Under the pieces are notes generated by a model. The model did no database searches, was not told where the DNA came from, and worked only from the letters and a program-made list of their open reading frames with translations. DNA of 64,000 nucleotides, from assembly GCA_963798085.1 (NCBI GenBank), contig CAWCRS010000003.1, forward strand, positions 736,001 to 800,000. The letters run 5' to 3'. The DNA comes from an uncultured Gemmatimonadales bacterium. GTDB lineage: Bacteria > Gemmatimonadota > Gemmatimonadetes > Longimicrobiales > RSA9. This document shows, in pieces, positions 18,529-35,836 of this stretch. How positions within the stretch are numbered: position 1 is the stretch's first letter; each line of letters starts with the position of its first letter. The position numbers were made by a program, and so were the translations under genes.

Positions 18529-19887
18529 CTACACGAAGCTGTGGACCAGGCTGCCCACCAGCAGGGACCAGCCATCCACGAGCACGAACAGCAGCAGCTT
18601 GCAGGGAAGCGCGATCATGGTGGGCGGCAGCATGAACATGCCCATGCTGGTCAGCACCGCGGAAACCACGAGATCGATGACCACGAACGGCAGGAAGATC
18701 GCGAAACCCATCTGGAACGCCGCGCGCAGCTCGCTGGTCGCGAACGCCGACATCAGCACGGGCAGCGACACATCCTCCGGCGCATCCGGCATGGGCTGTC
18801 CACTCAGCTCGACGAAGTGGGCCAGGTCCTGCTCCGGCACCTGCCGCAGCATGAAGGCGCGCAGCGGCTGACTGCCCGTCTGCATCATCTGCACTTCATC
18901 GATTTCGCCGTGCATCCACGGCTGGATCGCGGTGGAATTCACTTCCGCGATCGTGGGCGCCATGATGAAGCCCGTCAGCAGCAGCGCCAGCGCGGCCAGC
19001 AGCTGCGCCGGCGGCACGCTCTGTGTGCCCAGCGCCTGCCGCATGAAATGCAGCACCACGAGCACGCGCGTGAAGCTGGTCATGAGCAGCAGCAGCGTGG
19101 GCAGTGTCGCCAGCAGGCCGATGAAAAGCACGGTGCCCACGGTACCGCTGATGCGCAGATCGGATTTCGAGCCGTCACCGAACTGCAGCGCCAGGCGAGG
19201 CACACTGCCCTGCGCCGGCAGCTGCGCGATCTGGGCGGGGTTCAGCTTCTGTGTACTGGCGGTTGCGGCCGGCGCTGCGCCGCGGCCGCCCTGGTTCGGC
19301 TGTGCCGCCGGATTCGTGTTCGCCGAGCTGCCGCGACCGCTCGCATTCTGCGTCTGGTTCTGCGCGGCGGCGCCGCCGCTCTGCGCGCCGCGGCCCGCCT
19401 GATTCCCCGTACCGCCATTCTGTGCTGCCTGCACCCGCGCGGGCGCCGCGGACAGCGGCTCGGCGTGCACGCGTGCGCTCGCGAAGGACAGGGAGAAGCC
19501 CGCGGCGGCCAGCACGCGCAGCAGCCCGAGCGCGCGCAGACCGCGCGCGGTGGCTCCCGTCGCGCCGGCGGCCGAGGCGGTGTCGTCGCCTGCATCACCG
19601 GACGCGTCCCGCAGTCCGGCCTTCAGCGATTCCTGCGGTGTCAGCTCGGTGAGCAGGTGGACGCCGCCATCGCCTACGGAGACGACCAGCACGCGATCGG
19701 CCACGCGCACCGCGGCCACGCCCTGGCGCGGCCCGATGGCGGTGCGCTGCAGCACGTTGAGGCGCAGGCCGGAGCGGCCCGCACCGGTCACACCGGCAAA
19801 GCGGCGGGCCGCGCCCACCGCCAGTCCCAGCAGTCCCAGCACCAGCCCCAGCGCCAGGATCAGACCTAACACGGCGCTAACGGTCAC
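18529..19887 (-). CDS. fliP: FliO-FliP fusion protein
   Basis: N-terminal FliO (TM then LNVLQRTAIGPRQGVAAVRVADRVLVVSV); C-terminal FliP (MTSFTR, LRAAFQMGFAIFLPFVVIDL, GMFMLPP, LFVLVDGW). Confidence 0.93.
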   Translation of the reverse strand: MTVSAVLGLILALGLVLGLLGLAVGAARRFAGVTGAGRSGLRLNVLQRTAIGPRQGVAAVRVADRVLVVSVGDGGVHLLTELTPQESLKAGLRDASGDAGDDTASAAGATGATARGLRALGLLRVLAAAGFSLSFASARVHAEPLSAAPARVQAAQNGGTGNQAGRGAQSGGAAAQNQTQNASGRGSSANTNPAAQPNQGGRGAAPAATASTQKLNPAQIAQLPAQGSVPRLALQFGDGSKSDLRISGTVGTVLFIGLLATLPTLLLLMTSFTRVLVVLHFMRQALGTQSVPPAQLLAALALLLTGFIMAPTIAEVNSTAIQPWMHGEIDEVQMMQTGSQPLRAFMLRQVPEQDLAHFVELSGQPMPDAPEDVSLPVLMSAFATSELRAAFQMGFAIFLPFVVIDLVVSAVLTSMGMFMLPPTMIALPCKLLLFVLVDGWSLLVGSLVHSFV

Positions 19888-22400: not shown

Positions 22401-23658
22401 CTACCGCTTGAGGTTGACCAGCTCCTGGAGCATCTCGTCGCTGGTGGTGATCACGCGCGCGTTGGACTGGAAGCCGCGCTGCGCGGTGATCAGGTTCGTG
22501 AATTCCTGCGCCAGGTCGACGTTGGACATTTCGAGCGCGCCGGACGTGACGACGGACTGGCTGCCTTCGCCGGCGAAGCCCAGCACGGCGGCGCCGGAGT
22601 TGGGCGATACCGTGTACATGTTGTCGCCCACGCGGATCAGGCCCGACGGATTGTTGAAGTCGGCCAGCACCAGCTGCGCCAGCGTCTGTGTCGTGCCGTT
22701 GCTGAATGCGCCCACGATCGTGCCCGTCGGATCAATGCTGATGCGCTCGAGCAGACCCATCGTGTAGCCGTCCTGCTCTTTCAGCACCGCGGTCGAGGGC
22801 CCGGCGAACTCGGAAAGGCCGTTGATCTCGCCTGCCGTGCCGAACGTCAGCGTGACTTTCTGCGAGGCGGCGAAACCGGCGGGCGTGAACTCGAAGTCCA
22901 CGGTCTCGGGATCCAGCAGCGAGCCATTCGTGTCGAACGTCACGGTACCGGTGTCGTTCACGTACGTCGAGCCGGGCTCGTTGTTGGTCGTCGTGATCGC
23001 GTAGTCCCACTCGTTGGCGTTGGCGTTCTTGGTGAACTCGATGTTCAGGTCGTGCTTGCCGCCCTGCTCGTCATACACGGTGATCGAATGTGTTGCGCGT
23101 CAGGCCCTGCGCCGCGCCCGCATCGAGGTTGCCGCCCAGGACCGCGTTCTCGGTGGCGTGGGCCGGCGCCTTCTGGCCGAAGGGCAGCTTGATGTCGTCG
23201 ATCGTGTCGGTCAGCACGCCGTTCACAGGCACGCGACCCTGCACGATGAAGCCGTTCGTGGACGCCACCAGCTTGCCCGACGCGTCCAGCTGGAACGCGC
23301 CCGAGCGCGTGTAGAAGCGCTGCGTGCCGTCGGACACGACGAAGAAGGAATCGCCCTGGATGGCCAGGTCGGTGTCCACGCCGGTCGTCTCGAGGTTGCC
23401 CTGCGTGAACATGGCGTCGATGCTGCCGATGTTCATGCCCAGGCCGATCTGGATCGGGTTGCGGCCGCCGGACACGTTGGTGGCGCCGCCCGGCGGACGG
23501 CTCGCGCCCTGCACGATCTGCGCGAACGCTTCCTCGAATGTCACACGACTCGACTTGAACGCCACCGTGTTCACGTTGGCGATGTTGTTGCCGATCACGT
23601 CCATTTTGACCTGGTGATTGCGCAGGCCGGACACGCCGGCGAACAGAGAACGCATCAT
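22401..23658 (-). CDS. flgE: Hook protein FlgE (one frameshift near 23080-23105)
   Basis: N-half MMRSLFAGVSGL...GNNIANVNTVAFKSSR; C-half SITVYDEQG...LEMSNVDLAQEFTNLITAQRGFQSN in another frame. Confidence 0.95.
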
Positions 23659-23681
23659 TTCGGATTCTCCTCGTTGCCTGT

Positions 23682-24359
23682 TTACTGGCTGATTTCGATG
23701 ACGTTGCCGAGCGGGATCGTGATCGAGCCGCTCGACAGCACCGGCCCGCTGGCGGTGTACCTGACTCCGTCGACGCGCAGTCGCGAGTACGTGGTCACGC
23801 TGACCGCCGTGCCCGCGCTGTCCTTCACATCGAGGCTGTAGGTGTACTGACCGGCCGGCACGTTGCCGACCAGCTTGCTCAGGTCGATGTTCTGGTCACC
23901 GGCATCCAGCCGGCCCACATCGTAGCGCGCCACTTCCTTGCCCGTGTCGTCCTTGATCACGACCTGACCGACGCCACCCTCGCCGCCCACATTCACCTTC
24001 ACATCGAGCGGGCCGCTGGCCGGCATCTGCAGCGCATCACCCTGAATGAGCACGCTCTTGCCCAGCAGCTGGGCTGCGGTGCTGGCATTGATGCTCTGGA
24101 TCAGCGAATCATTGCCTGCGCTCTGCGCCTTCAGCTCGTCGCCGATGTTAATGAGCTGTTCGACCGCCGAGAACTGCGCCAGCTGAGCCGCCATTTCCTT
24201 GGGATCCGCGGGATTCATGGGGTCCTGGTTGCGCAGCTGGGATACCAGAAGCTGCAGGAAGTCGTCCTTGCCGAGGACGCTGCCTGCTGTGGCCGCCGCC
24301 GCGCTCGACGTCGAGCTGGCTGTCGTGCTGCCGCCGGCACTCGTGATGGGATCGATCAT
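23682..24359 (-). CDS. flgD: Hook-cap protein FlgD
   Basis: LGKDDFLQLLVSQLRNQDPMNP...AQLAQFSAVEQL; start ATG 24359. Confidence 0.97.
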   Translation of the reverse strand: MIDPITSAGGSTTASSTSSAAAATAGSVLGKDDFLQLLVSQLRNQDPMNPADPKEMAAQLAQFSAVEQLINIGDELKAQSAGNDSLIQSINASTAAQLLGKSVLIQGDALQMPASGPLDVKVNVGGEGGVGQVVIKDDTGKEVARYDVGRLDAGDQNIDLSKLVGNVPAGQYTYSLDVKDSAGTAVSVTTYSRLRVDGVRYTASGPVLSSGSITIPLGNVIEISQ

Positions 24360-26449
24360 TTGCCATTCTCCTTGCCATGTCTCCGGGCGTTCCGGTGTTC
24401 CTGCTGCGCGCCGCCCTGGCGGGCCCACGCGCTTTCGTTCTGGTTGCTGCCATTGCCTTTGTTGCGCGACGCGTCCCTGCCCGCCTGCGGCATCACCAGC
24501 GGCGAGGCCTCGCCTGCTTCGCGGATCAGTACCGAAGCATCCAGCCCCCGCCGTTCGAGGATCTGACGCAGTTCGCCGGTGTGCGTGGCCAGCTGCGCCG
24601 CGGCCGTCGGATCAGTCACATCAATGGCCGCATTCACGCTGGTGCCGCGCAGGCCCACGCGGATGCGGGCGGCATCACTGCCATCGGCGCCCGTGATGTG
24701 GAGTGTGACGCCGGAGGCAGGCGAGGCTTGCGCCGCATCCTGCAGCGCGAGTACACGCGCCACGCGTGCGCCAATGTCCACGCCCTGCGCTGCGCCCGCG
24801 CCCGCCGCCTGCTGCGGCTGCGATCCGGCCACGGCGCGCCAGAGCGCGCGGGCCGCGTCGTCGCCCTGCAAACCTGCGGTCAGCGGATCCGCGCTGCTGC
24901 GACCATCACCATCACTGCTCGTGCCCTGCTCGCGCAGAGCGGCCGCCAGCTGGCTGGCCCGTGTGTTGCGCGCGGTCAGACTGCCCGTGTCCGTGGTCTG
25001 CGGCGCACCGGCGGTCGTGTTGACCGTGGCCCCGGATGCGGCCGCGAGTGCGCCTCGCGCCGCCGCAGTGACCGCGGCCGGTGCCTCCAGCAGGCTGGCC
25101 ACGCGCGCCACCTGCGCGGTCGCCGCCACTGTCGCCACCGGCGCGGGCGCCGAAGCGTCTCCGCTCATGACCGGCGGGGCTGCGGAGCGGCCGCCTTCCA
25201 GCGCACCGTCAGGAGCCAGCTGGCGAATGGTCTGCATGTCGCCCGCCGCGCCGCGCAGTTCGATGTGACCGGGATCGGACGGGCCCAGTGTGCTCAGTCC
25301 TTCCTGTGCGCAGAGCTGCGCCAGGCGGGCGTACTGGGCGTCGTCGCCTCCCTCGATGACGACATTGGCCGCGAGGCCGGCAGTGTGGTTCGAGTGCTTC
25401 GTCCACGTCACCGTCTGGCCCGGCTGCGTGCGACCCTGCGCGTACAGCGCATCCTGCCGCGGCTGCGAGCGCCAGGTCTCGACCACGTGCACATCCTCGC
25501 CGAATTCCTGCTTCATGCGCTCGATCACACGCTCCAGCTTCGTGCGGAACTCGGGCGCCAGTGCGTCCAGCGAACGTTGCACGTGTGTGCTGTCCGTATC
25601 CGTCGCCACCGGTTGCGCCAGCGCCGCGGCTGCGGCCTGTGCGGCAGCCGCGCTGTCCGCGGCATTGGAGGCGACACTGTTCTTCTGTGCGCCGGCGTTG
25701 TCAGAGGCGGCCGCACCGCTGCCAGCGGTCGGGGCCGGAGTGCGGTTGTCTGACTGGCTGTTAGGATCGTCCGTCGCCGTGCCGCCGCTGGCGCGGCCTG
25801 CCGCGGAGGCGCTGCGGCGCGACCCCTGGTCCGTGGCTGTGGCATCATCCAGCGCCTGCGCGGTGGCCCGTATGGCTGCCCGCCGCGTGCCCGGGTCGCC
25901 CGGCTCACTCGCCGTTGCCTCCGGCTGCATCAGGCCGGCCGGCCTTGCCGTGCCGCCATGGCCCGCGTCGCTGGCCGGGGCCCGTGCGCGGGCCAGCAGC
26001 AGTCCGAAGTCCGGACTGCCTGACACGGTATTATCGTTGCCCGGGTACGCCGCCGCCTGGGCGAGGCGTCCGTTGGCATTGCTGCCGTGGGCGCGCGTCT
26101 CGACGGACGCACTCGCGCCCGACAGCAGGCCGGCCACGCCGGCTTTGAGACGTCCCGCGGCTGCACGCGCTTCACCCGCATCCTGCATTGCGTCACCGCC
26201 TGTGTCATTGGTACTGCTGCCTGTTGCTGACGCGGCACCCGTCGCCCCGTCACCCACCACCTCCGCGTCATCCATGAAGCGGGCGAGAAGACTGCCAAAC
26301 CCCGGTACCGCCCTGCCCCGTTCAGCGCGCAGGCGGACGTCTGACGACGTCGCCTGCAGACCGGCCAGGGCCCGCTGCCCCGCGTGCTCACGCAACGGTG
26401 CAGAGTTCGGCGATTGCGCGCCGATCGCGGAGCCCGGGATCATCGCCAT
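24356..26449 (-). CDS. fliK: FliK-like hook-length control protein with internal M15-family peptidase domain
   Basis: Directly upstream of flgD; long Ala/Ser/Thr-rich ruler; C-terminal ARIRVGLRGTSVNAAI...GELRQILERRGL (FliK_C-like); central ETWRS..RQDALYAQGRT..SNH..GLAA..DPGHIEL. Confidence 0.78.
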   Translation of the reverse strand: MAMIPGSAIGAQSPNSAPLREHAGQRALAGLQATSSDVRLRAERGRAVPGFGSLLARFMDDAEVVGDGATGAASATGSSTNDTGGDAMQDAGEARAAAGRLKAGVAGLLSGASASVETRAHGSNANGRLAQAAAYPGNDNTVSGSPDFGLLLARARAPASDAGHGGTARPAGLMQPEATASEPGDPGTRRAAIRATAQALDDATATDQGSRRSASAAGRASGGTATDDPNSQSDNRTPAPTAGSGAAASDNAGAQKNSVASNAADSAAAAQAAAAALAQPVATDTDSTHVQRSLDALAPEFRTKLERVIERMKQEFGEDVHVVETWRSQPRQDALYAQGRTQPGQTVTWTKHSNHTAGLAANVVIEGGDDAQYARLAQLCAQEGLSTLGPSDPGHIELRGAAGDMQTIRQLAPDGALEGGRSAAPPVMSGDASAPAPVATVAATAQVARVASLLEAPAAVTAAARGALAAASGATVNTTAGAPQTTDTGSLTARNTRASQLAAALREQGTSSDGDGRSSADPLTAGLQGDDAARALWRAVAGSQPQQAAGAGAAQGVDIGARVARVLALQDAAQASPASGVTLHITGADGSDAARIRVGLRGTSVNAAIDVTDPTAAAQLATHTGELRQILERRGLDASVLIREAGEASPLVMPQAGRDASRNKGNGSNQNESAWARQGGAQQEHRNARRHGKENGK

Positions 26450-26460
26450 GCCGGAACCGA

Positions 26461-27018
26461 CTACCGCCCGGCCAGCAAAGCCTTCGCGATGGCCGTGCCC
26501 CGTTCACCCTTGAACTTGGCCAGGATCGCTGCGGCCTTGCGTTCCGAGAGAGTCAACAGCACTGCCTTCACCGGAGCATCCTCCAGCGGTTCCAGGATGC
26601 GTGCCGCTTCTTCCGGCCGCATCGCTGCGAGAATGCGCGCCAGCCGCGCGGGAGGCGCATTGTGCGCGCTGAGTGAATCGAGGCGCATGCTGTCCGCGGG
26701 CGAGGTCTCCGGTGGCTTCGCGCCCGCGCTGGCCGCTGCGTGCTGCGCCTCGCCGGCTGCGGCTTCGTGCGCCTGCGCGCTGTCGCCCGTCATGGCGCTG
26801 GCCGCCGCCGAGTCAGGCTGCGCGTCTTCTGCCTGCCCCGTCGCGTTCGCCGCGGAATCCGCGGCCAGCGAGTCGGCGCGCAGAGAATCGGCCTTGAGCG
26901 AGCCGGCCGCCATTTCGGCGGCGTACCGGGTCGCGGCCTTGCGCATGGAAACGGTGGTGCCGCCGCCCGCGCCCAGCGCGAAGCACACGGTCGCGGCAAT
27001 CACGACTTTCATGTTCAT
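26461..27018 (-). CDS. MotE/MgtE_N-like flagellar accessory protein
   Basis: N-terminal hydrophobic segment; [19 protein letters not shown]...[10 protein letters not shown] helical motif; lies between fliJ and fliK. Confidence 0.75.
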
Positions 27019-27476
27019 GAAACGTCATCCTCCTGCTGGCGGCGCGTGAACCGGGCGAGCGCCACAGCATCCATCGTCGTGCGGTCCAGCCGCTCCTCGC
27101 CTTCCCGCCACAGTGTGAGATAGCGCTCGCGCAGCCGGTCCATGACCTGACGCTGCGTTAGAGCGTGCCGGAATTCATTGCGCGCCGTGTCCACGCGCGC
27201 GCCGGCTTCTTCCTGCGCCTTTTCCGCAACCGCCAGGTGTTCGTCGAGCTGCGCAATGAACAGCGCCATCTGCTGCAGCGTCCCTGCCGGCGCGGGTGTG
27301 CCGCTGCCACGGCTGGTGCCTTCGACCCCGCGATTGCGCGCGGCTTCGATGGCCAGGCGCTTCTGTTCGGCCAGTACCGCCTCGTTGTGCGCTTCCGCGA
27401 GCCGGGTGGCACTTTCCTTTTCCCGCTGCTCCCGTACTTCGAGCACCTTCTGCAGGCGAAACCGGAATCCACTCAC
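27015..27476 (-). CDS. fliJ: FliJ
   Basis: GTG start; (M)[18 protein letters not shown] and coiled coil ending MDAVALARF. Confidence 0.9.
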
Positions 27477-28810
27477 GATGCACCACCCGCCACGATTTTC
27501 GCCGCCAGCTCCAGCACGGCCTTTCTCGTATCGCCGAAACCCGTGCGCTCTGTCGGCGACTGCACCAGGAACGATTCCAGCGCGGGCCGCACGCGCAGTG
27601 CGGTGTCCAGCAGTGCGTCCGTGCCCGGCTGGTAGGCGCCCACGGCGATCAGGTCTTCCTTTTCGCGGTAGGCCGCCATGCATGCGCATCACCAGGTCGG
27701 CCGCCCGCCGGTGCTCGGCATCGGCCACGTGGTCGCGCACACGGCTGCTGCTCTCCAGCGCATCGATCGCGGGGAAGTGCGACGCCATGGCCAGCTTGCG
27801 CGTCAGCACGATGTGCCCGTCCAGGATCGAGCGCGCGGCGTCGGCCACCGGCTCGTTGAAGTCATCGCCTTCGACGAGCACCGTGTAGATGCCGCTGATC
27901 GCGCCATCGGCCGCGTTGCCGGCGCGCTCCAGCAGCCGGGGCAGTGCCGCGAACACGGAAGGCGGATAACCCTTCGTCGTGGGCGGCTCGCCTACCGCCA
28001 GTCCGATCTCGCGCCAGGCCATCGCCACGCGCGTGATCGAGTCGACCATGAGCAGCACGTGCTTGCCCTGGTCGCGGTAATACTCGGCGATGGCCGTGGC
28101 GAACTGCGCGCCGCGCGCGCGGATCAGTGCGGCCTCGTCGCCCGTCGCCACGATGACCACCGAGCGCGCCAGGCCTTCCGGGCCCAGCGAGTTCTCGATG
28201 AAGTCGCGCACCTCGCGGCCGCGCTCGCCCAGCAGCGCGATCACGTTGACGTCGGCCGACGTGTTGCGCGCGATCATGCCGAGCAGCGTGCTCTTGCCGA
28301 CGCCGCTGCCCGAGAAGATGCCGACGCGCTGGCCCCTGCCGATGGTGAGCAGGCCGTCGATGGCGCGCACACCGGTCGTGCAGCGGCTCGCCGATCATGC
28401 GGCGCTCGAGCGGGTTCGGCGGGTTGGTCTGCCATGGGCACGCGCGCGGTTGCCGCGCGGACCTGGCCCTTGCCGTCGATCGGGATGACCGAGGCCGTTG
28501 AGCACGCGGCCGAGCAGCGCCGGGCCCGACGTCCGGCGCCCAGGGAGCGGCCCAGCGGCTGCACGCAGGCTGCCGGGGTGCAGGCCATCCAGCTCGCCCA
28601 GCGGCATCAGCAGCACGCCGCGCTCGTGGAAGCCGACGACTTCGGCGAGCACCGTGTGACTCGCCGCGCGTCGCGCGCACACGGCACAGCTCGCCCAGTG
28701 CCACGTCCATGCCCGAGGCCTCGATGACGAGCCCGACCACGCGCGTCGTGCGGCCGAGGCCAATGGAAGCGCGTCGACGCTCTCCACCTGCGGATCAGTG
28801 ACTCAACCAT
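27473..28810 (-). CDS. fliI: Flagellar export ATPase FliI (several frameshifts)
   Basis: Pieces in several frames: [63 protein letters not shown]. Confidence 0.93.
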
Positions 28811-29488
28811 CGACCAGCCGGTGGTAGATGCGTTCCAGCCATGGTCGACGCGGCCGTCGATCACGCGGTGTCGGCCCTTCGACCATGCAGCCGCCCGGCT
28901 GGATGTCGGGGTCGGCGACCCAGCGCGACTTCGCGCCCCGGTGCGATCGAGATGTTGCCGCCATCCGCGGCTGTGGCGGAGAGTCATGGACAGATCCTGC
29001 GGGTGCAGGCGCACGCGCAGCGGCTCGTCCACCGGGAACTGCGCCAGCGCCCGCCGTGTCAGATCGGCGACAATGTGCGCGTCACCGGTCAGCTCGCGTC
29101 CAACCAGCTGTTTGGCCACGGCCACGGCCAGCGCGCAGATGTTCTCGCGCGCGTTGTCCACCCATGTGCCCTCGCCGGCGCTCAGCTGTTCCATCACGCT
29201 GGCCAGCGCACCGAGCGCCGAGCGCACGCCCGCGGCTTGACGCTGCATGGTCTCGGCGGCGCCTTCGTCGAAGCCGCGCTGATAGGCTTCTTCCAGCTCG
29301 GCCTGGCGCTCGAGGGCCGCGCGCCGGTCGGCTTCGCGCCGCTCGCCCACGCCACGCAGTGCTTCGCCCGGTGCGGGCGGCATGGGTTGCGCGGCCACCT
29401 CGTCGGGCGACCACGTGTCGGGCACCACGCCGACCTTTTCCGGCAGCGGCGCCAGCGATGTCGCGATCCAGTCAGAGGACCATGTCAT
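28803..29488 (-). CDS. fliH: FliH (frameshifts in the C-terminal part)
   Basis: EEAYQRGFDEG, LAVAVAKQLVGREL and LRVRLHPQD motifs; lies between fliG and fliI. Confidence 0.85.
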
Positions 29489-30508
29489 CGTCGCTGCCTC
29501 CGATCACGATCTCGCCCGCCGCCTCCAGTGCACGCACCATCTTCACGATCGCCGTCTGCGCGCTCTCCACATCGCGCAGCCGCACGGGTCCGAGGAAGCC
29601 CATTTCCTCACGCAGCGCGTCGGCCGCGCGGCTCGACATGAGCGACAGGATACGCTGTTTGAGCGGATCGCTCGCCGCCTTGAGCGCGAGCGCCAGTTCT
29701 TTCATCTGCACGTCCTTCAGGACGCGCTGCAGCGAGCGATCGTCCAGCCGCACAATGTCCTCGAACACGAACATCAGGTTCTTGATCTGCTCGGACAGTG
29801 TCGGATCCCTGGCGGCGATGCTCTCGAGCAGTTCCTTCTCCACCGAGCCGGTCATCCGGTTGAGCACGGTGGCGACCGCCTGCGGTCCGCCGGCCACGCT
29901 CAGGTCCTTCGTGATGGACACGGTCGACTCGCTGCCGTAGCAGCGTTCGAGCACCTGCAGCACTTCCGGCAGCACCTTGTCCAGGCGAGCCAGGCGCAGC
30001 AGGATCTCGCCGCCCAGCTCGGTGGGTAACTGCTTGAGGATCGCGGCCGTCTGGTCCGCCTCGAGGTGCGCCATGAGCAGCGCCACTGTCTGTGGATGCT
30101 CGGCACGCAGCAGTGCGCTGATCTGTGTGGGATCGGCGTTGCGCAGATTGCGGAAGCCCGCGTTCTCACGCAGCTGTGCTTCGATCCGCTTCAGGATGCC
30201 TGGCTGCTTTCTGTGGCCCGATCGCCTGCTCCAGCACCTGACGCGCGTAGTCGACGCCGCCTTCCGCGATGGAGTTCGCCGCCGTCTCCATCTGGCCCCA
30301 CTCACCCAGGACCTCGGTCACGATTTCCGTGGGCACGCGCTCGATGCGCGCGATCTCGAAGGAGATCTCTTCGATCTCCTGCGGCGTGAAAGTCCTGGTC
30401 ACTTCGGCCGCCGTCTGCGGCCCCATGGCCATCAGCACGATCGCGGCCTTCTGTTTGCCGGACATGTCCTCGATCGGCGAGCGCCTGCGCGACGCGGCGG
30501 GTTGTCAC
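29472..30508 (-). CDS. fliG: Rotor protein FliG (frameshifts near 30210 and 30475)
   Basis: SGKQKAAIVL and EGGVDYA in one frame; EHPQTVAL, MFVFEDI and GPVRLRDVESAQ in the next. Confidence 0.95.
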
Positions 30509-30509
30509 G

Positions 30510-31985
30510 TCACGACTCCTTCATCCAGGCGCGCAGCATGCGCGCGGCCGTTTCCGGACTGTCCGCCGAGCGTTGCAGCATGGCCGCGAACGGCGAGGGC
30601 GCTATGACCGGCGCTTCCGGAAATTGCAGCGCTTCGGCTCTGCCGCCAGCCGCCGCGGGCAGTGCGCCGCGCGCCGCCGGAGAGGGCACGGCCGCAGCCG
30701 CGCGCAGTGCCTTCATCAGCTGCAGTGCGACCACAAACGCGAGCGCCAGTCCAATGCTCATGAAGATCTCGTTCCTGTAGCGCGGCACCATCATGAGGAC
30801 CGATGGCTTGCTGACCGGTTCCTGGGTGGGCACGCTGACCGAGAACGGCGCCGACATGACGGTGATCGCATCGCCGCGCGTCTTGTCCAGGCCAATGGCG
30901 TTGGAGACCAGCTGGTCCACGCGCGACAGCTCATCCGGCGTCCACGGCTGCGGCGTCTTGCCATCGGCCGCCGTGCGCTCATTCAGCATCACCGCGACCG
31001 TCAGCCGGTGCACCGTGCCGGCGGCGCCGGAGAAGGTCTCGATGCTCTTCGTCGTCTCGTAACTCGCCGATGATGCCGATGACGCCGCGCCCACCTGGCC
31101 TGGACTGGGCATGATATCGGAGCGCTCTTCCTTGGTCGTGACCTGCTCGTCCGGATTCAGCTTCTGCGTCGTGCGATCGATCTTGTCGAAGTTCAGGTCG
31201 GCGGCCACGCGAACACGCGCGTTACCCGTGCCCACGGTCTGCCCGACCAGGTCTTCGGCCTTGTGCTCGAGGTAGGCTTCCACGTCGCGGCGCATCTGCA
31301 GCTGGCGCTTGCTCAGTCCCGCCGCCGAGCCCGGCTCCACCGCGGCCGTCAGCAGGTGACCCGCATCATCCAGCACCGTCACGCGATCGCTTTCCAGGCC
31401 GTCCACGCTGCTCGCGACGAGCGAGGAGATGGCATCCACCAGCTCTTCGCCCGGCCGCGTGCCGCCCCGCGTAGCGTCAGCACCACCGACGCAGCTTCCG
31501 GCTGACTCGTCTTGCGGAACCCCGACGACTCGTTGATCGCAATGTGCACCGCGCAGACTGCACACCGCGCATCTCGCCGATCGTGCGCTCCAGCTCGCCT
31601 TCCAGCGCCCGCCGGTAGTTGATGCGCTGCGTGAAGTCGGTCATGCCCCAGGCCGGCTTGTCGAACAGCTCGAAGCCCGGGCGGCCCTTGGCCGGCAGAC
31701 CATCCCGCGCCAGTGCGACTCTCGCCTTGGCCAGGTCGCTTTCCGCGACCAGGATCCTGCGAGCCGCCATTTCCAGCTGGTATTTAATGCCCTGTTCGTC
31801 CAGCTTGGTCGTGACCTGGCTCACTTCGTCCAGCGAGAGCCCGGGCATGAGCGGCACATAGTCGGGCCGCGCGGCAATGCGCGCGATCCACAGGATCCCC
31901 ACAATGGAAGCGGCACCTGCTGCCAGGATGACAAAGGAACGCCCGCGACCGGCGCGCTCCATCCAGTTCCGAAGCAATCCGGCAT
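30510..31985 (-). CDS. fliF: MS-ring protein FliF (frameshifts near 31470-31560; start approximate)
   Basis: GFELFDK...GMTDF.Q.INY.RALEGELERTI; ASSVDGL...VTVLD; RLTVAV; PETAARMLRAW. Confidence 0.93.
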
Positions 31986-32014
31986 CGTCGCCACGGCTCA
32001 GGAATTCTCTCTGA

Positions 32015-32352
32015 TCAGGTCTGCATGTTGATCACCGTGCGGTATGCCTCGGTGATCTTGTTGCGGATCTCGATGAGCAACTCGAGGGCGAGGCCGGCTT
32101 CTTCACTCGCCGCCATCACATCGTGCAGTTCCACGGGATCGCCACGCACGAACGCGGCAATCGCGTCGCTCGCCGTGTCCTGCAGCTCACTCACTTCTCC
32201 AATCGCCTGCTTGAGCGCGTCGCCGAACGAAGGGCCGGGCGTGAAGCCCAGCTCCAGCTTGCGGAAATCCTGCGGCCGCGGACCGCCGACGCCCTGCGGA
32301 CCCTGCAGCGTGCCGCCACTCTGCACCGCGCCCACACCCTGATCGCGCTCAT
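32015..32352 (-). CDS. fliE: FliE (apparent 1-nt deletion after codon 4)
   Basis: SFGDALKQAI...LHDVMAASEEA...EIRNKITEAYRTVINMQ. ATG 32352 gives MSAI(Q)GVG if one base is restored. Confidence 0.9.
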
Positions 32353-32354
32353 GC

Positions 32355-32687
32355 TCAGACCGTCCGATCAATGCGCGCGCCGCGCACCAGGCCCGGCGGA
32401 ATGTTGGCGCTGCCCGGTCCGTAGGTGAGCGGCCCCGACGACTGCAGCCGCGAGAAGAACTGCCGCTCCTCCGCCGACAGCACACTCCACAGCTCGGGAT
32501 CCGTGCCCGGCGGCGCTTCCGCCGGAATCGCGCCATTGTCGGCGACGATGCCCGTCGGTGTCTGCTTCGTTGCCGGCACATTCGCCGGCAGCCGCTGCAG
32601 CCCCGTCGACTCCGGCCTCGCCGGCCGAGGCCCGATGCCGCCCGGCCCGTAGCTGCCAAACCCGCCGTTAACCCCCTGAATCGCCAC
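32355..32687 (-). CDS. Hypothetical protein between flgC and fliE
   Basis: Good RBS (GAGGAG); 110 aa with PAEAPPGTDPELWSVLSAEERQFF and RG..ID C-terminus; tightly coupled to fliE. Confidence 0.8.
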   Translation of the reverse strand: MAIQGVNGGFGSYGPGGIGPRPARPESTGLQRLPANVPATKQTPTGIVADNGAIPAEAPPGTDPELWSVLSAEERQFFSRLQSSGPLTYGPGSANIPPGLVRGARIDRTV

Positions 32688-32839
32688 TGTTGCTCCTCGT
32701 TCCTTCGTCTGCCTTACAGTCTGTTATGGCAATCCCGCGCGCCCGTCTCTCTCGTTTCCTTCTGCCCGACATTGCGTTTCTGGTTCAATCTGTTCCCCAG
32801 CCCCAGCCCGAGCCCCAGAAACGTTTCTGCCGTTTCCGT

Positions 32840-33365
32840 TCAGATCTGCGTCGCCCGCTGCAGCATGTTCTTGATCGCCTGGAACACCGTCGCGTTCGCT
32901 TCGTACATGCGCCTCGACTCCATCAGGCGAACCGTCTCCTGCGTCAGGTCGACATTGGGCATGTGCACGTAGCCATTGGCGTCGGCGTCCGGGTGGCCCG
33001 GGTCATAGACCATGGGTCCGTGCGTCTGGTCCTGCGCAATGCCCGTCACCGCCACACCGCCTTCCTGCTCCACCTGCGGCAGCGGCAGTTCGCCTGCCAG
33101 CTCGCCCGACGGGTAGAATGCGACCCGCCTCGAGATAGCCCGCCTGCGGCACGTAGACCTGCTCCGCCAGCTGCGCCTCGCGCCGCTGATACGGTCCGCC
33201 CTGCGGCGTGCGCGTGGTCTCGGCGTTGGCAATGTTCGAGACGATCATGTCAATGCGCTGCCGCTGCGCGCTCAGTCCGCTCGCCGAAATGCTCAGCGAA
33301 CGGAACATCGGGCGGATCGCGCCCGGCAGCTGCATCAGCGAAGCACCGATACGACGAATGTCCAT
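32840..33365 (-). CDS. flgC: Rod protein FlgC (frameshift near 33115-33130)
   Basis: ISASGLSAQRQRIDMIVSNIANAETTRT..GGPYQR, then YDPGHPDADANGYVHMPNV...RMYEAN in a shifted frame. Confidence 0.95.
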
Positions 33366-33367
33366 GA

Positions 33368-33688
33368 CTAGCGCTCCCGTACGCTCGAGCGTACCTGCGT
33401 ATACGTCTGCTGCAGCAGCCGGGTCAGTGCCTCGTACCGGATCTGCTCATCCGCCAGCGACACCATCTCCTGCTCCACATCGACGCCTTCTTCCGGCAGT
33501 CCCGCATTCGCCGCGTTCGCGGGATTCGCGGGATCCGCCGTCTGCGCCGCGTTCAGCGCGCCCGCGAAGCCCGGCGTCGAGGCATTCGCCACGCGATGCG
33601 CAATGCCACGCGCTCGCGCACTCGAAGCATCGAGGCCGCTCCTGAGCAGCGCAGCTGCGGACTCCGGTCCCATCAGCCGTGTGAACAT
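33368..33688 (-). CDS. flgB: Rod protein FlgB
   Basis: IAHRVANASTPGF and VDVEQEMVSLADEQIRYEAL motifs. Confidence 0.9.
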   Translation of the reverse strand: MFTRLMGPESAAALLRSGLDASSARARGIAHRVANASTPGFAGALNAAQTADPANPANAANAGLPEEGVDVEQEMVSLADEQIRYEALTRLLQQTYTQVRSSVRER

Positions 33689-33725
33689 CGTCGTTCATCC
33701 TCCGAACAGTCGCCATCCCCCGAAG

Positions 33726-33740
33726 GCAAGCGCCATTCCA
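33726..33740 (-). promoter_or_regulatory. Sigma54 promoter of the flgB operon
   Basis: TGGAATG-GCGC-TTGC, 37 nt upstream of flgB. Confidence 0.72.
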
Positions 33741-33861
33741 GTGGGCAGAAACCGCGGCGGCAACTCCTGGCATCCGCCGGAAGTCGCCGCATGGCAACAC
33801 GTTGCGGGTTCAGACATGGCGCCATCACAAGCCCCGCCAAACAGCCGGTTCCCACGAATGG

Positions 33862-33876
33862 CGGCAAGTTCTGCCG
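33862..33876. promoter_or_regulatory. Putative enhancer (UAS) CGGCA-AGTTC-TGCCG
   Basis: Palindrome ~120 nt upstream of the flgB sigma54 site. Confidence 0.6.
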
Positions 33877-34012
33877 CCTCCAGACGGGTCGTTCTTGCCG
33901 GTTGAGGCAGACGCGAGGCTGCTGCGGCGAGGCAGACTCCGGCCGGTTGTTTGCTTGTCGCTGATCTTCCTGCCGGTATCGTGGTTCCGCGCGAACGACT
34001 AACGGAATACTT

Positions 34013-34333
34013 CATCATCACACGGAGGCATCGGGGGGCGGAGGGGCGCTGCTGTGGCGTGAGGGCTGAACCGCAGCGGACCGGTTGTGATGGGTTGCCT
34101 GCTGGGATTGAAGGCGATTTCGTGCGGTGTTCTGCTGCAGGCGCATCGCTGTGATTTCAAACGATCCGGACTGTCGCTGAATTCCTCCGATCAACCGCCT
34201 CGATCACTCGATCGAGCAGTGCCCGATCCGCGCCTCGTGCGATTTCCTTGTCGTGCGTTCACGCCCCGGGGCCACGCAGCCGCAATCCGTCCCCCGTGTC
34301 CCCCGTCCCTCCGACCACCTCAGTGTGATGATG
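34013..34333. repeat. Second CATCATCACAC...GTGTGATGATG inverted-end element
   Basis: Perfect 11-nt terminal inverted repeat, with G-runs facing C-runs inside; shares GGAGGGGCGCTG with the element at 3872. Confidence 0.65.
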
Positions 34334-34434
34334 CAGTTATCCGTTTCCGCACCAGATCACATCTCGGCAAGACGTCGCCGCCATGCCGCTTACACCAGGA
34401 CTCACTGCATCCTCGAGCCACGCCCCAGACACCT

Positions 34435-35836
34435 TCAAGCCTCCCCCACAACCTCGTCTTCGAGGCCGTCGGGGCGATTGAGCTTGTTGCGCAGTGTCCG
34501 GACGCTGATGCCGAGCAGGGTGGCGGCGCGGGTGCGATTCTGTTTCGCGGTCTCGAGCGCGGTCTCGATGAGACGGCGTTCGGCCTCTGCGATATTCAGT
34601 GTGGACAGCACCACCGCGTCTTCAATGCCCGTGTGTCTGGTCCGTGCGGGACGCGCCTCGGCCATGACGTGCGTGGTACCGGGCAGATCGAAGGCGTCGG
34701 GCCCGATCACTGTCGTGCGCGTCATGATCACGGCGCGCTCAATGGCGTGCGCCAGCTCGCGGACATTGCCGGGCCAGGCGTGTGCGCGCAGCCGTTCCAT
34801 CGCTTCTGCTGACACGCCGGTTATTTCGCGCCCGGATTCCTGGGCGGCGCGGGTCACGAAGTGCTGCACCAGTGCGGGCAGGTCTTCCAGTCGCTCGCGC
34901 AGTGGCGGCACGCGGATCTGCACGACGCCCAGACGATAGTAGAGGTCTTCGCGGAAGCGGCCTTCCTGGATCTCGCGGCGCAGGTCGCAGTTGGTCGTTG
35001 CGATCACGCGCACGTCGACGCGTACGGGCGAGTGCCCGCCCACGCGCTCGAACTCCTGTTCCTGCAGCACGCGCAGCAGCTTCGGCCTGCAGGTCGAGAC
35101 GCATCTCGCTCACTTCATCCAGCAGCAGCGTGCCGCGGTGCGCCCGCTCGAACACAGCCTTGGTCTGGCGGATCGCGCCTGTGAAGGCGCCGCGCTCGTG
35201 GCCGAACAGCGTGCTTTCCACCAGGGCTTCCGGCAGTGCGGCGCAGTTGATCGCGATGAACGGACCATTGCGCCGGTCGCTCCGTTCGTGAATGCCCCTC
35301 GCCAGCAGTTCCTTGCCGGTACCGGATTCGCCGTGCAGGAGCACGGTGGCGCGCGCCGTGGCCACGGTCTCCATGGCTTCCACCACCTGCTGCAGCGCTT
35401 CGCTCTCGCCCACGATGGTGCGCTCGGCGCGCTCGCTCACGCGTGCGCGGAGGCGCGCGGTCTCTTTCCGCAGGCGGTTCGATTCAATGGCCTGGTTGAC
35501 CACGACCAGCAGCTGGTCCGAGCGAATCGGCTTGGACAGATAGTCCACCGCGCCCGCCTTCATGGACAACACCGCGTGCTCCACACTCGGCGCGCCGGTC
35601 AGCATGATGAGCGGCACCGTGGCGCCGTTCTGGGTCAGGTAATGCAGGAATTCGAGGCCCGAGCTGTCGGGCAGGCGATAGTCGGATACAATGAGATCCA
35701 CCGTCTCGGCTTCCAGCACATCGATTGCCGACTCCACATCGGCCGCCGTGAGCGCGCGGTGGCCGGCGCCGGCCAGCGTCCGCCGCAGAACGGAGAGCAC
35801 TGCGGGTTCGTCATCGACACAGAGAATCGTCGCCAT
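34435..35836 (-). CDS. Sigma54-dependent response regulator (REC-AAA+-Fis HTH; NtrC/AtoC/FleR type), +1 frameshift near 35085
   Basis: ILCVDDE, GESGTGKE, ESTLFGHERGAFTGA and LLLDEV motifs; LQA(K)LLRVLQE is split by one extra base; RFREDLYYRL, WPGNVREL and LGISVRTLRNKL follow. Confidence 0.95.

Follow-up and report, generated by a model that had tools for sequence, protein, structure and literature searches.

The window analysed here, a 64,000-nt stretch from an uncultured Gemmatimonadales bacterium (contig CAWCRS010000003.1 of GCA_963798085.1, forward strand, 736,001-800,000), encodes a flagellar hook-length ruler, FliK, whose low-complexity ruler region houses a predicted zinc peptidase domain of the M15 type. 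Both component families are known, and their union in one protein appears to be new. The purpose of the fusion is probably to help the growing rod through the wall. No report of a FliK-peptidase fusion was found in a literature search that ran largely over main texts outside subscription journals. No NCBIfam model covers the fusion, and among the matches listed its members are named either "FliK" or "M15 family/CwlK", never both.

The fliK locus and the identity of the carrier protein

The preliminary description of this DNA placed the gene in the fliK slot, between a motE-like gene and flgD. Pfam scans of the window ORFs bear this out: fliK::M15 lies within a near-complete, single flagellar cluster, and its upstream neighbour is an MgtE_N/FliG_M-like (motE-like) gene (Table 1).

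Table 1. Features of the fliK::M15 locus, in window coordinates
Feature	Position	Strand	Remarks
fliK::M15 gene, 697 aa	24356..26449	(-)	no internal stop; stop overlaps flgD start (ATGA)
N-terminal low-complexity ruler/export region, aa 1-285	25595..26449	(-)	67% A/G/S/T/P/D; no obvious Sec signal
M15 (LAS-type) zinc peptidase domain (predicted), aa 286-400	25250..25594	(-)	sequence and profile matches
M15 domain residues in this copy			R327, Q332, S353, H355, N362 (Asp in relatives), D392, H395
AAT codon, Asn362 at the Asp zinc ligand	25364..25366	(-)	GAC/GAT in 74/74 related loci
(V/I-A-x)n period-3 repeat	25094..25147	(-)	accompanies M15 domain
FliK C-terminal (Flg_hook/T3S4-type) switch domain, aa ~560-645	24515..24772	(-)	
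flgD, hook cap	23682..24359	(-)	directly downstream of fliK::M15; Pfam
motE-like (MgtE_N/FliG_M-like) gene	26461..27018	(-)	directly upstream of fliK::M15; Pfam
flgJ, Rod-binding domain only, ~104 aa	6484..6798	(-)	followed directly by flgN

Judged by three sequence features that were tested, namely the Flg_hook domain, the place before flgD and a ruler region without Sec signal, the carrier is a true FliK. The disordered ruler noticed earlier is present, with A/G/S/T/P/D making up 67-68% of the residues outside the domains, and it is of variable length among relatives, the fusion proteins ranging from 381 to 1022 aa. A crude hydrophobicity screen for signal peptides was positive for one of 154 N-termini. 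The FliK_C-like end is weak in this copy, which matches Flg_hook at E 0.032, below the curated cut-off, and gives no match when the segment is cut out and searched by itself; it is supported through the relatives, 23 of 33 aligned sequences matching Flg_hook at E<=0.001 (best 9.3e-11). Searched against solved structures, the FliK_C profile matched no FliK or YscP chain. The spacer between the M15 domain and FliK_C (median 154 aa, range 71-433) is less variable than the N-terminal part (CV 0.30 vs 0.44).

The protein thus resembles the known rulers, Salmonella FliK (PF02120, Flg_hook) and YscP/InvJ, in its low-complexity N-terminal ruler and C-terminal Flg_hook domain, and it shares with Salmonella FliK the position beside flgD and the lack of an evident Sec signal. 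It differs from them in that the ruler is broken, some 150 aa ahead of FliK_C, by a folded enzyme domain and a conserved repeat; the cited flagellar literature describes no enzyme domain for FliK.

The M15 domain and its active site

Residues 286-400 form a compact island inside otherwise low-complexity sequence. The motifs quoted in the preliminary description were located at 25474-25463 (WRSQ), 25393-25382 (SNHT), 25372-25361 (AANV) and 25276-25265 (DPGH), and the M15 pattern of Ply500 type that it recognised was recovered by single-sequence matches to Ply500 (2vo9, E 6.5e-7) and LysB4 (6akv, E 5.3e-6). With a profile of the domain, the best solved structures were the same two L-Ala-D-Glu peptidases, at E 1.2e-12 and 1.5e-12, followed by weak matches to other M15 and Hedgehog chains; these PDB alignments span the N-terminal 80 positions of the domain only. 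The matches are compatible with a predicted zinc peptidase fold of the LAS/Hedgehog type, as far as sequence can tell.

LysB4 binds zinc through H80, D87 and H132, and its activity needs R50 and D129, being abolished in R50Q and D129A (PMC6354061). The counterparts of R50, H80, D87, D129 and H132 in this copy are R327, H355, N362, D392 and H395, the equivalence of D129 and H132 coming from the motif and from stand-alone relatives, not from the PDB alignment. Among 239 distinct domains, the five positions are all intact in 237; the Arg, the first His, the D129 equivalent and the distal His are invariant in 239/239, and the Asp ligand is replaced once by Asn (this copy) and once by Val (P0170). 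Mean column identity is 66% over the M15 domain and 22% over whole proteins. The Arg and the general-base Asp should be dispensable for folding, and a passive fold would not be expected to retain both. A family-wide pseudo-enzyme was rejected on the basis of the intact catalytic set.

The nearest stand-alone relatives are CwlK-type M15C proteins (E ~1e-17), most of them with PF13539 and several named CwlK-type. Matches were also found in 71 phage records, mostly of Bacillus and Listeria phages, whose endolysins are about 35% identical. With M15C peptidases (Ply500, LysB4, CwlK-type) the domain shares SxHxxGxAxD and the catalytic Arg, together with the DxxH general base/third ligand and a LYAQGRT.PG segment. 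Unlike them, it lies inside a type III export substrate, has no cell-wall-binding domain, is divergent from CwlK-type relatives in its C-terminal half and, in this one copy, has Asn for Asp. None of 77 aligned domains matched PF13539 at E<=0.01; weak matches were to Peptidase_M15_3 (50) and VanY (48), and also to MepK-, VanXY- and D-Ala-D-Ala dipeptidase-type models. By its active site the domain would work like an M15C lysin, although Pfam does not place it in M15C proper. The unmatched PF13539 and the divergent C-terminal half make the bond cut uncertain, cleavage between L-Ala and D-Glu being the most likely candidate.

Asn362 and the quality of the assembly

The preliminary description had cautioned that the expected zinc-ligand Asp reads Asn, so that the domain might only bind. 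The AAT codon (25366-25364) was confirmed, and the His-Asp-His zinc site is incomplete in this copy as assembled, with H355 and H395 present. The substitution is private to this genome and absent from the family, where the Asp codon in 74/74 loci makes a binding-only domain unlikely. AAT differs by one base from GAT, the codon used in 28 of the 74 relatives. A 151-nt contig of an independent soil run covers 25333-25483 with two differing letters, their places unlisted, and a search of sequencing runs listed no RNA run as a holder of this sequence.

Compared with a genome of the same genus, 16 of 141 conserved genes carry frameshifts, and the genome-wide rate in this assembly is about 1 per 10 kb (17 in 162 kb). 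Eight frame switches fall at 23.0-35.1 kb of the window, in flgE, fliI (twice), fliH, fliG, fliF, flgC and a sigma-54 regulator. False joins occur at flgI-flgJ and fliM-fliN, the apparent in-frame flgI-flgJ join resembling a single-base indel. Frame switches are denser here than across the genome, as would be seen if the consensus had poor support in this part or if the cluster were truly decaying. For Asn362 the odds are close to even between an erroneous base in the consensus and a private, weakened allele, with error very slightly ahead, and the family-level conclusion is independent of which one applies.

Distribution of the fusion in Gemmatimonadota

A search with the region returned 24 proteins, 10 of them with a precomputed Flg_hook domain. 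A genome scan gave 207 confirmed stretches; the best 80 of the 207 were analysed and comprised 74 loci of the fusion type (71 titled Gemmatimonadota, three only "bacterium") and six stand-alone proteins of 162-198 aa from other phyla. The M15 domain and FliK_C were found in one ORF in 65 of the 74 loci, so that the fusion is conserved as a single gene across many genomes; eight were cut by a contig end and one (L058) was split. When representatives of 50% clusters were searched with a profile, 455 matched at E<=1e-30, the best 150 being listed. Of 170 database proteins, 155 also had FliK_C, and most of the 15 without it ended shortly after the M15 domain. An assembly join of two genes is ruled out by this recurrence in independent genomes. 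The locus and protein sets are top matches, and therefore biased to conserved copies; a census of 301 genomes across the phylum is less so.

In the census 77 genomes had FlgD, in families f1, f2, f4 and f5 of Gemmatimonadota and in the sister class f10. Just upstream of flgD, a strong match (E<=2e-43) was found in 38 of 40 flagellated f1/f2/f5 genomes, and all 39 census matches lie 675-1203 bp upstream of that gene. The two exceptions belong to f5, one with a decayed remnant (G168) and one with none (G121). Among the near relatives of this genome, 5 of 41 had FlgD and the same five had the strong match. FliK carried no M15 domain in the flagellated f4 genomes (0/26) or in those of f10 (0/11).

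FlgJ and other wall hydrolases

FlgJ of the window had been described as limited to the rod-binding domain, which is indeed its sole content, flgN abutting it. It had also been stated that no other hydrolase was recognisable in the cluster; Pfam scans of 84 window ORFs found no peptidoglycan-hydrolase family besides the M15 domain, and none of the six SLT genes of this genome lies within the window.

FlgJ was short (71-136 aa) in 17/17 clusters of f1, f2, f4 and f5 read to that gene. In f10 it was 291-306 aa long with an SLT motif in 6/6 clusters read, family matches confirming two. Three states are thus present: FlgJ-SLT with plain FliK (f10), short FlgJ with FliK-M15 (f1/f2/f5), and short FlgJ with plain FliK (f4), the last in full flagellar clusters (10 read). 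A scan of 77 of 221 unassigned ORFs, taken as representatives of similarity groups, revealed no substitute hydrolase in the ten f4 clusters; its sole wall-hydrolase match was an M23 gene near an f5 cluster. Each of the 29 genomes tested had 1-9 SLT genes, almost all of them away from the flagellar cluster; another enzyme could therefore open the wall.

The proposed link between an M15-bearing FliK and a muramidase-less FlgJ therefore stands in part. The two occur together in f1/f2/f5, but not one-to-one, f4 having neither the M15 domain nor the FlgJ enzyme, which argues that the M15 domain is not an obligatory replacement. Strict replacement of the FlgJ enzyme is ruled out by f4 and by the flagellar tree.

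Evolutionary history and the repeat module

In a FastTree phylogeny of nine concatenated flagellar proteins, the f1, f2 and f5 clusters grouped with support 0.999 and f4 fell outside. Both other rootings were rejected at p<=0.009 by an AU test that used 13 of the 32 taxa and 2000 resamplings, with a long branch to the outgroup. On the simplest reading of these sequences, the M15 domain was gained once, when FlgJ was already single-domain, and at least two losses followed in f5. The M15 tree contains no clean FliK-only clade, three stand-alone proteins of the non-flagellated family f3 falling inside with support 0.62.

A (V/I-A-x)n repeat follows the M15 domain by a median of 38 residues. Of 153 complete fusion proteins 149 have it, against one of 17 FliKs without intact M15 (a poor match) and 0/109 short stand-alone relatives. 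The repeat tracks the M15 domain, suggesting that the unit gained and lost is a peptidase-plus-repeat module. A phage-lysin-like M15 domain with this short repeat would thus have been inserted once into the FliK ruler of the ancestor of the f1/f2/f5 flagellar clusters.

Discussion

We favour, at a probability of roughly 55%, the reading that the ruler is a rod-stage peptidoglycan peptidase, exported by the flagellum and predicted from its sequence to cut stem peptides at the rod tip. FliK-M15 would be exported unfolded by the flagellar type III apparatus, and copies would pass from the rod tip into the periplasm before the rod crosses the outer membrane. There the domain would fold, bind zinc and cut stem peptides, most likely at L-Ala-D-Glu, beside the growing rod, supplementing housekeeping lytic transglycosylases rather than acting as sole opener. 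Once the hook is complete, FliK_C would still trigger the switch in export. Salmonella secretes FliK during the whole of rod and hook assembly, and a FliK-beta-lactamase fusion reaches the periplasm and is active there while the rod is being built, when the outer membrane has yet to be breached (PMC13344023). The state of f4, with a full cluster, short FlgJ, plain FliK and no hydrolase in the clusters read, speaks against this reading, as do the loss of the domain in G121, its decay in G168, the Asn at the zinc ligand of this copy and the unmatched PF13539. The f4 clusters and the two f5 losses would make the domain an aid, not a requirement.

Co-export would suffice to explain the fusion, and the coupling of length sensing to wall cutting proposed in the preliminary description is not needed. 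In a stronger form, which we put forward only tentatively, FliK would be a tethered drill, opening the wall and timing the export switch in one protein. Taking the 0.2 nm per residue reported for insertions in FliK, the median spacer would span about 30 nm, that product being the only input to the geometry. With FliK_C still at the export gate, the M15 domain would come out at the end of a short rod and fold there. Wall cutting would then be limited in place to the rod tip and in time to the rod stage, and the repeat would dock the domain on the rod cap.

An active zinc peptidase might instead have a target other than the wall at the rod. It might cleave a different peptidoglycan bond or act at a different stage (3-3 cross-links, D,D-carboxypeptidation, making room for the P ring), or its substrate might be a peptide within a flagellar protein, FliK included. 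The weak MepK-, VanXY- and dipeptidase-type matches, the preference for Peptidase_M15_3 and VanY over PF13539, PDB alignments confined to the N-terminal 80 positions and a family-specific repeat that may bind a partner all leave room for this. We regard it as unlikely, though the least so of the alternatives, since the best solved and phage relatives are by far L-Ala-D-Glu wall peptidases and the M15/FliK_C split in L058 is an isolated case. Slightly less probable is a mechanical role, in which a compact, zinc-stabilised fold, formed on exit, would tune the timing of the switch by pulling FliK through or by anchoring it to the wall, with catalysis incidental. Folding of the FliK N-domain on exit has been proposed as a fast pull that prevents premature switching (bioRxiv 2020.03.25.007062), and the comparatively constant spacer and the Asp ligand missing here and in P0170 agree with such a role; the oxyanion Arg and general-base Asp, kept in every distinct domain, argue against it.

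The flagellum could also be a delivery route for an extracellular lysin, acting on neighbouring bacteria or scavenging wall fragments. Flagellinolysins, in which a metallopeptidase is reportedly inserted in flagellin (PMC5595980), are a precedent. They are like the present fusion in carrying a metallopeptidase within the variable region of a flagellar export substrate, and unlike it in that the carrier is the filament subunit, displayed outside in thousands of copies, and in that their peptidase family differs from M15. The closest phage relatives infect Gram-positive hosts, related stand-alone M15 proteins exist in the non-flagellated f3, and some FliK also escapes to the outside while the hook grows (PMC13344023). 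Few FliK molecules are likely per flagellum (bioRxiv 2020.03.25.007062), Salmonella FliK-Bla misfolds outside the cell (PMC13344023) and Pfam matched no wall-binding domain, all of which render this route improbable. It is scarcely credible that the fusion is an artefact of two joined genes or a chance motif in an error-rich assembly; frameshifts and false in-frame joins do occur nearby, but the same single-ORF architecture recurs in independent loci and database proteins.

The rod-stage peptidase reading can be set beside known solutions to wall crossing. FlgJ is itself a type III export substrate and breaks down the wall for the rod (PMC13737085), and where FlgJ is single-domain, separate lytic transglycosylases serve (PMC8517470, PMC6913195). 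The fusion resembles dual-domain FlgJ (the Salmonella glucosaminidase, FlgJ-SLT of f10) in placing a predicted wall hydrolase on an early flagellar export substrate, but the carrier is a transient ruler, not the rod cap, and the enzyme a peptidase, not a glycan cutter. As with Borrelia BB0259 and Rhodobacter SltF (PMC8517470, PMC6913195), FlgJ is enzyme-less and another protein supplies the enzyme; unlike these separate SLT proteins, the enzyme is fused to FliK.

How flagella cross the wall in the many phyla with an enzyme-less FlgJ is only partly known, and the answers described are glycan-cutting enzymes, either FlgJ-borne or separate. If our reading is true, the ruler-borne peptidase would add a third design, residing in a domain of 120 residues that can be assayed directly. 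The phylum offers a natural comparison between FlgJ-SLT (f10), FliK-M15 (f1/f2/f5) and neither (f4). The measuring region of the ruler would also accommodate a folded enzyme, a point relevant to models of the ruler and to the use of FliK in carrying cargo for export.

Frameshifts and a FliO-FliP fusion in the window

Eight frameshifts fall within positions 23000-35100 of the window, a density above the genome-wide rate of about 1 per 10 kb, and two false in-frame joins were found, flgI/flgJ (about 6798) and fliM/fliN (about 20224). Where a gene of the window is annotated as split or fused, the annotation should not be trusted without reads. FliO and FliP are encoded by a single ORF, and the FliO part is also matched by 18 of 20 fliP ORFs from relatives; the ORF is a natural fusion and no product of an indel.

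Coordinates of features in the window and in related loci
Feature	Location	Strand	Context
FliO and FliP in a single ORF	window 18529-19887	-	
Conserved small gene	window 32358-32690	-	between flgC and fliE
FliK with M15 remnant	L136:4833-6554		genome G168, family f5
FliK without module	L135:16046-17980		genome G121, family f5
FlgJ-SLT fusion	L138:9437-10330		sister class f10
FlgJ-SLT fusion	L140:9788-10705		sister class f10

Other flagellar genes

The small gene between flgC and fliE is kept in 11 clusters (families f2, f4 and f5) and in genome G006, with products of 80-133 aa that have a conserved C-terminal half and a low-complexity N-terminus. A Pfam scan of the product gave no match; its matching atlas clusters are unnamed, with Gemmatimonadota as their commonest taxon, and the closest named family is TP_0700 (score 0.92, a lead only). 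The gene possibly encodes an undescribed flagellar protein.

In the sister class f10, FlgJ is fused to a lytic transglycosylase (SLT) domain at L138, L140 and four further loci. FlgE of this class has about 1035 aa and FliK about 900-1000 aa, and after flgK lies an ORF of the flagellin family that is about 1055 aa long.

Duplication, loss and possible origin of the M15 module

One FliK-M15 protein, P0026, contains a second M15 copy, partial and decayed, at residues 169-207, upstream of an intact copy (392-503). Within family f5, the remnant in the G168 FliK lacks both the zinc motif and the repeat, and no trace of the M15 and repeat module was found in the G121 FliK; these represent two stages of module loss.

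A related M15 domain occurs in the non-flagellated family f3, on stand-alone proteins (L006-L010; open frames of 313-391 aa), several of which start with a signal-peptide-like stretch. Their domain keeps DPGH, and its zinc motif is interrupted by an insertion. FlgD was looked for in the f3 genomes carrying them and was not found. These stand-alone proteins may be the sister group or the source of the FliK M15 domain.
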